DNA from: a virus
Taxonomy: Duplodnaviria > Heunggongvirae > Uroviricota > Caudoviricetes
Strand: one strand, 5' to 3'
Length of the DNA stretch: 9,406 nt
Virus record (IMG/VR): IMGVR_UViG_2648501787_000010
Positions 3,119 through 6,143 of the stretch are shown one piece after another (within the stretch, counting starts at the first letter, position 1; each line of letters starts with the position of its first letter). The notes beneath the pieces were generated by a model. The model was not told the DNA's origin. It did no database searches and saw only the letters and a program-made list of their open reading frames with translations. Position numbers and translations under genes: made by a program.

Positions 3119-3541
3119 TTAAAACGGTATGTTATCCCCGTACGGATCATCATTTCCCGCCTGTTGTTTTGCCCTGTTCAGTGCGTCAGTAGCCTGCCCC
3201 TGTTGACCTTTTTTGCCGCCCGGTCGCGCCGTTCTGGCACTGATTACACTGTCTGCGATAACCTGCCAGCCCTGCCGCGTTTCGCCGTTCTGGCCTGTCC
3301 ACTGGCTCACCTGCATATTACCCGCCACGCTCAGGAGTTCGCCTTTGTGGTGTTTTGCCAGTGCGTCGGCCTGTCTGCCAAACGCCAGGACAGATAACCA
3401 CATCGTCGCCGTTCCGTCATCTGCCTGGCTGCACGGCAGGGGAACCGCCATACCCGCCATCGCCATTTGTGTCCCTTTGCTGGTGGTCTTTAACTGCGGG
3501 TCAGCCACCAGCCGACCGTAAGCTGCTATCTGTGCTGTCAT
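3119..3541 (-). CDS. ssb: single-stranded DNA-binding protein (SSB-like), 140 aa, with C-terminal ...GDNIPF tail
   Basis: OB-fold pattern parallels E. coli SSB (GRLVADPQLKTT...G..MAMAGMAV versus GNLGQDPEVRYM...G.AVANITLA; W..V.AFG..A...AK...KG versus [21 protein letters not shown]), followed by a Gly/Gln-rich linker and an acidic tip ending IPF, like the DDDIPF tail of bacterial SSB. Start ATG (3539-3541) overlaps the stop of the upstream ORF by 4 bp. Confidence 0.85.
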   Translation of the reverse strand: MTAQIAAYGRLVADPQLKTTSKGTQMAMAGMAVPLPCSQADDGTATMWLSVLAFGRQADALAKHHKGELLSVAGNMQVSQWTGQNGETRQGWQVIADSVISARTARPGGKKGQQGQATDALNRAKQQAGNDDPYGDNIPF

Positions 3542-3816
3542 GCAGTCTGCTCTCCGGTTTTAACGTTGATGGTTGTCACCTGTTCAGCTTCCGCAATCTC
3601 CCGCTCTGTCAGCGTGGCAAAATTTGCCGCCGTCGTGGTCATGAATGCGCTTATCAGTTCGGGATGTGCTTTCGCGTATCCTTCCCCCGCGTGGCGGTCT
3701 ATCGTTCTGATTGCCACCTTTAAAGCGTGCTCTGTCATGTCTAACGCGCGATATTTCGGTTCTGTTCTGTCTCTGCGTTTTTTGAGTGATTTATTAAATT
3801 TCCCTGAAGTGTGCAT
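3538..3816 (-). CDS. hypothetical protein (92 aa), translationally coupled to ssb
   Basis: ORF with GAGGGGG upstream of the ATG at 3814-3816 (spacing somewhat long); an alternative internal ATG at 3736-3738 lacks an SD. Stop overlaps the ssb start. No recognisable motif. Confidence 0.5.
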   Translation of the reverse strand: MHTSGKFNKSLKKRRDRTEPKYRALDMTEHALKVAIRTIDRHAGEGYAKAHPELISAFMTTTAANFATLTEREIAEAEQVTTINVKTGEQTA

Positions 3817-3864
3817 ATTTATTTTTACCCCCTCGTTTAAAAAGTTTTGAGTTGTGCCTCCCCT

Positions 3865-4090
3865 TGTCTACCTTATCTACCTTAGTGGCCCTCATGCCAG
3901 TAATGGCGCGGCTTTCAGCGGGGTAGAGTGCTTTTATCCACTATCTACCCCGTGTCTACCTCCCTGTCTGATTCAGGTAAAATCAGGTAGAGAGGGTAGA
4001 TAGTGGGTAGACAGTAAAAAAAGGCTATCTACCTAACTTAATGCACTGAATTAAATGTATTTTTCTTTACTCAGGTAGACAGGGTAGACA
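3865..4090. repeat. iteron cluster (octamer GGTAGAYA / TRTCTACC, about 11 copies in both orientations); putative origin of replication
   Basis: Copies read directly: TGTCTACC 3865-3872, TATCTACC 3874-3881, GGTAGAGT 3922-3929, TATCTACC 3942-3949, TGTCTACC 3953-3960, GGTAGAGA 3986-3993, GGTAGATA 3995-4002, GGTAGACA 4006-4013, TATCTACC 4026-4033, GGTAGACA 4074-4081 and 4083-4090. Interspersed A-runs and an AT-rich stretch (4040-4070). Lies immediately 3' of the primase-helicase gene. Confidence 0.75.
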
Positions 4091-4104
4091 GCAATTACAA
4101 AAAA

Positions 4105-5859
4105 TTATAAAAACGCGTCGCACTCGTCTGTTGTTATTGCGTTAGTCTGCGTTACTCCCTTAACTTTCCGCGTAATATATTCATGTCCGTAAACTTTCGC
4201 GGCTGGCTTCATAGCCTTGCCAAAGTCATTTACGTTTAGCGGTTTGCTCCTGCCTGCGTACGCCATAAACGCCAGATAGACGCGGTAAAGGCTGTTTCTG
4301 GTCGTGTACTTCACTGAATCGCCACCGCCGCCCATCATCAGGCCGCGTGCTTCCTCCAGAAAATTCAGGAACTGGCAAAACTCAATAACCGGATCCGTCT
4401 GTTGCTTTATTGCCAGTGCTTCATCACCGTCACGCTGTTCAATGAGTAAAGCCCGTGCCTTTTCAGGGTCGGCAAAGTTCGCCAGCAAGCGGCGGATAAT
4501 GACAGGGATTTCAGCCGCGATCTTTTCCGGTAGCTCCCTGTCTTTTTCTGCCTCGCTTACGATGTTATCGAACCGGAATATCACCCGACGACGTGCCACA
4601 CCTCCGGCCCGTTCGGTGAATATCATCGGATTGTTATTGGTTGCCAGCACCACCGCCCTGATTACCGCCGTAAAACGCTTTTCATATTTCGGGTTAATTT
4701 CCACGGGGTCGCCGCCCGTGATTTTCTTGATGCCCGTTCCTTCGCCTGTATATTTCGGCTGGTCTGCCAGGACGATAAGCCGACTCCCGACAACCTGCGC
4801 ACGCCCACCAGCATCATCAAGCGATGTCATCTCAGCGCTTACTGTGTTCTGTTTCCCTGCCAGAAGGCTGGCTATGTGCGTAAATGTACTCTTGCCGCTC
4901 CCGCCGTCTCCTGTGGCCTCAATAAACATCTGCCAGTCGTACCGGTTCGCCATAATCATGTATAGCGCGGCACATATGCGCATCATCTTGCCCGGGTCTT
5001 TTCCGGCTGCGTGATCAAGCCATTTATGAAAGTTTGGCGCGTTGTCGCGGATATTCTCCCCTGGTACTGGCGGCGTGTACTCAATGCCGTTGTGTGTGGT
5101 GATCCAGTTATCAGGCGAGTGCGGGGAAAATTCCCCTGTTTTCAGGTCAAGCACGCCATTAGCGAACGGCAGCAAATCACCGGACGGCTCGCCCATTGGT
5201 TCGGCAATAACTTTTAACGCTTCAATGGCGTTACTGATTACGCGCTTGCTGAAAGTGGCTTTATGTTCTGAATAAATCGCCACCATTTCGCGGCTCAGTT
5301 CCATTGTGCTGACCGGACACCATACCCCGCCGCGCCAGACGTGGATGATTTCACTTTCCGGATGCACACAAACGCTATCAAAGCGATCGACAAGCAGTTG
5401 CGCGCGCTCACTGTCCGCCATCTGCGAAAGCTGCATTTTTTGCTTTACCGGAAGCTCAATAACCAGCCCATCAGAAAGATTCTGGCGTTCACGGGCCAGA
5501 TATTCGCGCCAGTTCTCCACCTTCTTACCGTGCATTCCCTCAGGGTAAAAATTTGCATCCTGTACGCCTGCCGCAGCCAGATTCTGACCAATCGCCTTAA
5601 TCATTACAGGCGCAAGATGTCCGGCTCTGTAGATACGAGCGTATGTTCGGCCTTCCGGTACAATCTGTAGATTATCCAGTTCGGATAGCTGCTGCTCTCC
5701 AAGCCACACAGGAGGCTCATTATCTCCGGCTGTACGCGCGTCGTGTTCCTGCCACTGTTTCGCGTGTGACCAGGCATCACTACCCGCAAAAATGATCACT
5801 TCGGTTTGTTCGTGTTTTATTCCGCGAGGCTGTTTTTTTACGTTCGGTGCCAGTTTCAT
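4105..5859 (-). CDS. P4-family DNA primase/helicase (replication initiator), 584 aa
   Basis: Walker A box GDGGSGKST followed by a hydrophobic-acidic Walker B-like segment (RLIVLADQ), with a large N-terminal domain, consistent with the P4 alpha / D5-type primase-helicase architecture. Start ATG 5857-5859 overlaps the stop of the upstream ORF (ATGA) and is preceded by a GGGGG SD. Stop TAA at 4105-4107. Confidence 0.9.
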   Translation of the reverse strand: MKLAPNVKKQPRGIKHEQTEVIIFAGSDAWSHAKQWQEHDARTAGDNEPPVWLGEQQLSELDNLQIVPEGRTYARIYRAGHLAPVMIKAIGQNLAAAGVQDANFYPEGMHGKKVENWREYLARERQNLSDGLVIELPVKQKMQLSQMADSERAQLLVDRFDSVCVHPESEIIHVWRGGVWCPVSTMELSREMVAIYSEHKATFSKRVISNAIEALKVIAEPMGEPSGDLLPFANGVLDLKTGEFSPHSPDNWITTHNGIEYTPPVPGENIRDNAPNFHKWLDHAAGKDPGKMMRICAALYMIMANRYDWQMFIEATGDGGSGKSTFTHIASLLAGKQNTVSAEMTSLDDAGGRAQVVGSRLIVLADQPKYTGEGTGIKKITGGDPVEINPKYEKRFTAVIRAVVLATNNNPMIFTERAGGVARRRVIFRFDNIVSEAEKDRELPEKIAAEIPVIIRRLLANFADPEKARALLIEQRDGDEALAIKQQTDPVIEFCQFLNFLEEARGLMMGGGGDSVKYTTRNSLYRVYLAFMAYAGRSKPLNVNDFGKAMKPAAKVYGHEYITRKVKGVTQTNAITTDECDAFL

Positions 5860-6143
5860 TTCTTACCCCCTGCGACCAGCATTTCACGGATTTTGCGGAT
5901 ATGACTTGCTGCACGTTTCTGATTTACGGCTTTACGATGGCCCACCAGCGTGAAATCACGCCGGAATTGATAAACAGGCATCACGCAATCATATTCGTAA
6001 CCTTCACGGCGGTAGGTGATGCGCCGTTCTGCCACGCCTTTAATCGTTACCATGCCGCCATATTTATCGCGGTAAATATCGCCGTTCATAAATTCAGGAC
6101 GAGCGGGGCCGCTGGCAGTAACGCCAGAATTTTTATTTTTCAT
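5856..6143 (-). CDS. hypothetical basic protein (95 aa), translationally coupled to the primase
   Basis: ORF with GGAG upstream of the ATG at 6141-6143; stop overlaps the primase start codon. No recognisable motif. Confidence 0.55.
   Translation of the reverse strand: MKNKNSGVTASGPARPEFMNGDIYRDKYGGMVTIKGVAERRITYRREGYEYDCVMPVYQFRRDFTLVGHRKAVNQKRAASHIRKIREMLVAGGKK

Follow-up and report, generated by a model that had tools for sequence, protein, structure and literature searches.

The octamer array at positions 3865–4090 is very probably the vegetative replication origin of a phage-inducible chromosomal island (PICI) of the EcCICFT073 type. The feature is already known, because a 95%-identical origin, that of EcCICFT073, has been described and its pri-ori region tested (Fillol-Salom et al., 2018, ISME J; PMC6092414). 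The origin in the window (the whole 9406-bp stretch analyzed here) is an allele of that origin and holds no new biology; what annotation gains is an origin position for a satellite island that is very common in E. coli. The residual novelty lies in a two-unit build, part P4 ori1-like and part crr-like, in an apparent two-class specificity switch and in the unverified "primase" function of the adjacent initiator. Repeat statistics, homology, layout and co-variation are shown here, and experiments have established dependence on pri and ori in EcCICFT073 only, whose region is 95% identical; what we infer is the binding and melting of the DNA, the loading of the helicase and the identity of the protein that synthesizes primers.

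The window is an EcCICFT073-type PICI; in E. coli MEW a chromosomal island between yejO and tRNA-Pro/yejM matches it at 100% identity. About 490 of 5,426 complete E. coli genomes contain a near-full-length match to the region. All genes in the window are on the minus strand. They encode an integrase (8165–9406), an AlpA-type regulator (7433–7639), a DUF4222 protein (5856–6143), a 584-aa initiator annotated as a DNA primase family protein (4105–5859), which corresponds to Pri-Rep of EcCICFT073-type PICIs, a 92-aa protein (orf92, 3538–3816; phrog_1231, no function assigned), SSB (ssb, 3119–3541), a lambda-E-like major capsid protein (1805–2845), a lambda-D-like head decoration protein (1454–1795), a second AlpA-like protein (1100–1444) and a Nu1-like small terminase (356–910). 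The presence of int, alpA and pri-rep on one strand of an island adjoining tRNA-Pro agrees with a PICI, and the element is of this kind and not a P4-type satellite. An exact copy of the lambda cosN 12-mer, GGGCGGCGACCT, at 1032–1043 on the minus strand, between the genes for the second AlpA-like protein and the Nu1-like terminase, is probably the cos site of the island.

Layout of the octamer array and match to EcCICFT073

The window contains nine exact copies of GGTAGAYA, counting both strands, and every one falls within 3865–4090. The chance expectation is 0.27 (SD 0.54), and nine copies were reached in 0 of 200 shuffles. In E. coli MEW, a 24.9-kb stretch that includes the identical island contains no copy beyond those of the array, and neither the window nor the island as a whole has a second cluster. 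Two degenerate octamers, GGTAGAGA at 3986–3993 and GGTAGAGT at 3922–3929, occupy slots that hold a repeat in relatives and bring the total to 11, such that the coordinates, the approximate copy number and the general description given previously are accurate. The octamer occurs in two forms, TGTCTACC or TATCTACC. A full-text literature search for the octamers returned only unrelated primer sequences.

The array starts 14 nt past the stop codon (4105–4107) of the minus-strand 584-aa gene, with the first octamer ending at 4090. Octamers start at 4083+, 4074+, 4026−, 4006+, 3995+, 3986+, 3953−, 3942−, 3922+, 3874− and 3865−, so that successive starts, from 4083 down, are 9, 48, 20, 11, 9, 33, 11, 20, 48 and 9 bp apart, with adjacent pairs always separated by 9 or 11 bp. 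The whole is an imperfect 226-bp palindrome centered near 3977 and comprises two mirror-image units; each runs from a pair across a 40-bp spacer to a single inverted copy and ends in two or three octamers.

The gene-proximal unit (3986–4090) begins with repeats 1 and 2 (4074–4090, plus strand), two copies of GGTAGACA 9 bp apart on the gene side of an AT-rich spacer. This spacer (4034–4073) is 40 bp long and 77.5% A+T, compared with 51% for the window overall, and is the presumed DNA-unwinding site. Repeat 3 (4026–4033, minus strand; GGTAGATA) is a lone inverted copy whose position is kept in relatives. It is followed by an A7 tract, read from the sequence at 4016–4022 on the plus strand between repeats 3 and 4, and by repeats 4–6 (3986–4013, plus strand; GGTAGAGA, GGTAGATA and GGTAGACA, spaced by 9 and 11 bp), which together with repeats 1–3 make up an ori1-like unit.

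The distal, mirrored unit (3865–3960) begins with repeats 7 and 8 (3942–3960, minus strand; GGTAGACA and GGTAGATA, 11 bp apart), which form the inverted-repeat arms I1 and I4. Repeat 9 (3922–3929, plus strand) is the degenerate GGTAGAGT; the same slot holds GGTAGAGG in two relatives (L005 and L006), GGTAGACA in L008 and GGTAGATA in L007. The spacer of this unit (3882–3921) is likewise 40 bp long but G+C-rich (40% A+T), and is well conserved in E. coli relatives of both repeat classes (see further below). Repeats 10 and 11 (3865–3881, minus strand; GGTAGATA and GGTAGACA, 9 bp apart) form the distal end of the array. Past this last pair, at a distance of 16 nt, is a AAAACTTTTT motif (3839–3848, minus strand), which could be a bend or a host-factor site, a role suggested by inference only; relatives from E. 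coli, Serratia and Morganella have motifs like it after their own last pair.

The single-strand DNA fold is strong (z = −4.5), a trivial consequence of the inversion of the octamers from which we draw no conclusion, and an Rfam scan of 3700–4250 gave nothing above noise, only sub-threshold microRNA hairpin matches that arise because the repeat arrangement is palindromic. A DnaA-box-like TTATCCACT at 3934–3942 (8 of 9 positions), which abuts octamer 8, is absent from the other octamer class and from L008, and we treated it as a chance match.

In the text of Fillol-Salom et al., the origin of Gram-negative PICIs is placed immediately 3′ of the replication initiator gene (pri-rep) and is described as carrying iteron sets that flank an AT-rich region; a temperature-sensitive plasmid was maintained by the EcCICFT073 pri-ori, and deletion of pri or ori impaired this (PMC6092414). 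The window shares this organization. Its array lies immediately 3′ of the 584-aa pri gene, the gene order of the island equals that of EcCICFT073, and iteron sets at 4074–4090 and 3986–4033 flank the spacer at 4034–4073, which corresponds to the AT-rich region reported for PICI origins in that text. The spacer between the primase gene and the next gene is identical to that of EcCICFT073 at 280 of 294 positions (95.2%), with 14 substitutions; all 11 octamers are in place, and nine are exact in both. The EcCICFT073 primase, also 584 aa long, is 95.2% identical to the window initiator. A primer arm from the supplement of that study (EcoCFT073-pri-4c; PMC6092414), which includes repeats 1 and 2, matches positions 4057–4116 at 57 of 60 bases. 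The two islands differ in location, between roxA and phoQ in CFT073 and beside tRNA-Pro/yejM here, and in their flanking genes, which are mosaic; the primer arm upstream of pri (PMC6092414), for example, has no match in the window.

We propose that, after induction, the initiator, a P4 alpha-like SF3 helicase, would use its C-terminal winged-helix domain to bind TRTCTACC octamers. Those on either side of the 40-bp AT-rich stretch would concentrate the initiator at that position, where the DNA would melt and the helicase load itself, and theta-type replication of the excised circle would then start.

The initiator and comparison with P4 and other origins

The initiator comprises D5_N, an SF3 helicase core and a C-terminal origin-binding domain (Pfam D5_N, DUF5906 and Pox_D5). 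Residues 143–579 are 41% identical to residues 326–762 of P4 alpha. Residues 488–579, encoded at 4123–4398 on the minus strand, match 1KA8, the solved P4 origin-binding domain (phmmer, E = 7.4e-7), and are presumed to form a winged helix; a single-sequence AlphaFold model of this domain is of low confidence (pLDDT 58). Together with the 95% identity of the EcCICFT073 spacer, these matches uphold the proposal that an iteron-type origin lies beside a P4 alpha-type initiator. A protein homologue search gave, among the matches listed, only proteins of at least 95% identity.

The gene had been described as encoding a primase-helicase. An N-terminal primase domain like that of P4 alpha was not detected in it, with no significant alignment of the initiator to alpha residues 1–325. 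Residues 1–142 (5434–5859) gave no hit to Pfam or NCBIfam models at the cutoffs applied, and among PHROGs they match only phrog_2850 (function not assigned) and phrog_864, a broad family labeled "DNA primase". The name seems to derive from the P4-family helicase part (TIGR01613), and primase activity is best regarded as putative.

In the P4 RefSeq annotation (NC_001609), the type-1 repeat is TGTTCACC, exactly as given in the preliminary description. The octamer TRTCTACC differs from it at two of eight bases, both central, which supports the view put forward there that initiator and origin have a specificity of their own. In layout the gene-proximal unit follows P4 ori1. Both systems use 8-bp repeats in both orientations, alongside a homologous helicase and origin-binding domain. 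P4 ori1 (9310–9413) has repeats at 9310, 9320 and 9331, an inverted one at 9353, a spacer of 35 bp and 83% A+T, to which the AT-rich spacer at 4034–4073 corresponds, and repeats at 9396 and 9406. The same succession of three repeats, one inverted repeat, an AT-rich spacer and two repeats is found here (3986/3995/4006, 4026 and 4074/4083), with the same orientation pattern (− − − + [AT] − −). Spacings are 10/11/22/43/10 bp in ori1 and 9/11/20/48/9 bp here, an agreement within 1–5 bp.

The distal unit (3865–3960), with its G+C-rich spacer, resembles a P4 crr unit. P4 crr lies directly 3′ of alpha, as the array here lies 3′ of the initiator gene, and has A6GT8 and A6T8 runs beside its repeat pairs, to which the AAAACTTTTT motif past the last pair of the distal unit is similar. 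The two P4 elements are ∼4.7 kb apart, whereas the two units here abut and are inverted relative to each other; the compact origin may be a fused version of the separate elements ori1 and crr. The window also differs from P4 in that no terminator stands between the gene and the repeats, and in that the element is a PICI with other regulation and packaging genes. At the crr edge of P4 itself (L093), positions 4281–4289 contain a perfect TTATCCACA, compared with the 8-of-9 DnaA-box-like TTATCCACT beside octamer 8 in the window.

The helicase core of the initiator matches PDB 7OLA (E = 6e-15; database label "DNA primase"), which we take to be the SaPI5 Rep helicase, and this match is a feature that the window shares with the Rep-dependent origins of SaPIs and other Gram-positive PICIs. 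No match between 7OLA and the C-terminal domain of the initiator was reported at E ≤ 1, there is no similarity in repeat sequence, and the Gram-positive islands belong to another lineage with another transcription layout. Iteron plasmids such as pSC101, R6K, P1 and F, with initiators of the RepA/Pi type, likewise have initiator-site repeats adjoining an AT-rich unwinding element and an initiator with a winged-helix DNA-binding domain, as presumed here. Plasmid iterons are typically direct repeats of 17–22 bp, and a dedicated Rep protein recruits the host DnaB helicase. In contrast, the repeats here are 8-bp octamers in both orientations and the adjacent initiator is itself an SF3 helicase; 17–22 bp direct repeats served by a non-helicase Rep are not what the window contains.

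Octamer classes across related islands

We compared 91 related loci, comprising eight from E. coli genomes, three from other genera and 80 from IMG/VR; a genome-contig search with the primase gave three loci, among them those from Serratia and Morganella. The octamer slots keep their arrangement in seven of the eight E. coli loci that were inspected closely. Dozens of islands retain the position and orientation of the octamers, and in most copies the repeat sequence has changed in concert.

The octamer sequences divide into at least two classes, which correspond to a short motif in the C-terminal domain of the initiator (residues 544–548; N544-D-F-G-K548 in the window, encoded at 4216–4230 on the minus strand), the motif co-varying with repeat positions 7 and 8. 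All 45 loci with N[DE]FGK have octamers of the ..YA form, GGTAGA(Y)A, and 45 of the 46 with A[ED]FSK (a count that includes L090–L092) have ..NG octamers, mostly GGTAGANG. Among the E. coli and IMG/VR loci of the two classes, the C-terminal domain shows no consistent amino-acid difference outside the motif residues. The sole discordant locus (L029; IMGVR_UViG_3300029303_000153), from a metagenome assembly, combines AEFSK with ..YA octamers. Beginning ∼30 nt beyond the motif codons, the rest of its alignment, the whole origin included, differs from the window at only two positions, and the locus may be either a natural recombinant or a chimeric assembly.

Variable sites further upstream in the gene are weakly associated with octamer class, and the association reaches 0.95–0.98 at the N/A codon. 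Towards the origin from this codon it remains high at several but not every variable site, and linkage to repeat class extends to synonymous sites lying between motif and origin. The segment from motif to origin thus behaves as a cassette of ∼500 bp, and the co-variation could partly reflect physical linkage. Beyond the origin, the alleles of the 92-aa gene that lies downstream are found in both classes and do not track the repeat class.

The more distant Serratia and Morganella relatives, at 53%–54% identity to the initiator, have C-terminal domains that are more P4-like. Their octamers are of a TGTTCA type, near the P4 iteron, and are comparably arranged around an AT-rich stretch. Considered together, the co-variation and these relatives support recognition of the octamers by the C-terminal domain of the initiator, as the preliminary description had suggested from the repeats.

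A more specific model can be offered tentatively, at somewhat less than even likelihood: the initiator family would comprise two or more replicon specificities without cross-reaction, set by two or three residues of the C-terminal domain, and the compact origin would in addition be a fusion of ori1 and crr. The proposed switch would consist of N544/D545/G547 against A/E-or-D/S at a helix end in the origin-binding domain, matched by octamer positions 7–8 (YA against NG) in most of the ∼11 copies. If this is true, related islands could share a cell without firing each other's origins, and the pairing of residues with octamers would provide a simple model for joint change of initiator and origin and for the compatibility of co-resident satellites. 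Neither the switch nor the fusion was found in the text and supplements of PMC6092414 that were covered; the iterons of several E. coli PICIs are shown in its Fig. 2a. One isolate (IMG genome 2703718778) carries two islands of the initiator family, one of each octamer class (L016 and L085), a single anecdote that is consistent with compatible replicons.

The exception among the E. coli loci is L009, from E. coli ETEC1734 (NZ_CP122801, locus 1966–2281), in which the units are swapped, with the distal-type unit first and the AT-rich unit after it. This order suggests that the two origin units can be rearranged as modules. The genes downstream of it also differ, and include a RepA-helicase fragment, ProQ/FinO and PerC. 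A hairpin in the G+C-rich spacer of this locus is not conserved in the window and was dropped from the analysis.

A sister island in E. coli clone D i14 (L094; NC_017652) has the same ssb, capsid and terminase genes, with the P4-like initiator replaced by a RepA-family helicase. Its spacer (locus 6391–6594) contains about five to seven copies of a AAGTGGGGA-like repeat. With another helicase family and other repeats, this is a different Pri-Rep allele, and we set it aside as a comparator; it shows that the whole initiator-plus-origin module swaps between islands.

Alternative roles of the octamers

The octamers might instead be operators for a regulator, for example an AlpA-like protein, at a promoter of the orf92-ssb-capsid genes, or, in a weaker version, the origin might double as a promoter-control region. 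We consider this unlikely. The array does lie directly upstream of orf92 and ssb, and the TAGACA in the last octamer agrees with the −35 consensus at five of six positions and stands 17 nt before AAACTT, a combination that was picked out by eye and, at 8 of 12 positions, is sub-threshold. The occurrence of the AAAACTTTTT motif after the last pair in distant relatives as well could also be accommodated by such a role. However, a promoter scan of 3500–4400 gave no site on the coding strand, and the overlap of the array with an orf/ssb promoter, as previously proposed, is not upheld, there being no sigma-70-like site on that strand in or after the array. Because no coding-strand promoter was found and no terminator follows the primase gene, it is simpler to suppose that transcription entering from upstream reads through into orf92 and ssb; the text of Fillol-Salom et al. 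describes a single direction of transcription for Gram-negative PICIs (PMC6092414). The octamer sequence, moreover, tracks the C-terminal domain of the initiator, the layout equals that of P4 ori1, and the near-identical EcCICFT073 region behaves as an origin in the experiments reported in that text. A secondary regulatory role of the array, though conceivable, finds no support in these comparisons.

The island encodes a Nu1-family small terminase, and lambda Nu1 binds repeated sites in cosB. The octamers could accordingly be read as a packaging signal, with cosB-like sites for the Nu1-like protein, a reading to which we give almost no weight. The exact cosN 12-mer at 1032–1043 stands a short way upstream of the terminase gene, some 3 kb away from the array; the array is therefore not the cos site. 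The octamers also co-vary with the initiator, and relatives with P4-like domains carry octamers near the P4 iteron.

A cluster of repeats that arose by chance or is decaying, without function, a reading for which the two degenerate copies and nothing else speak, is refuted by the outcome of the shuffles, the conservation of the position and orientation of every copy across dozens of islands and the joint change of repeat sequence in most copies.
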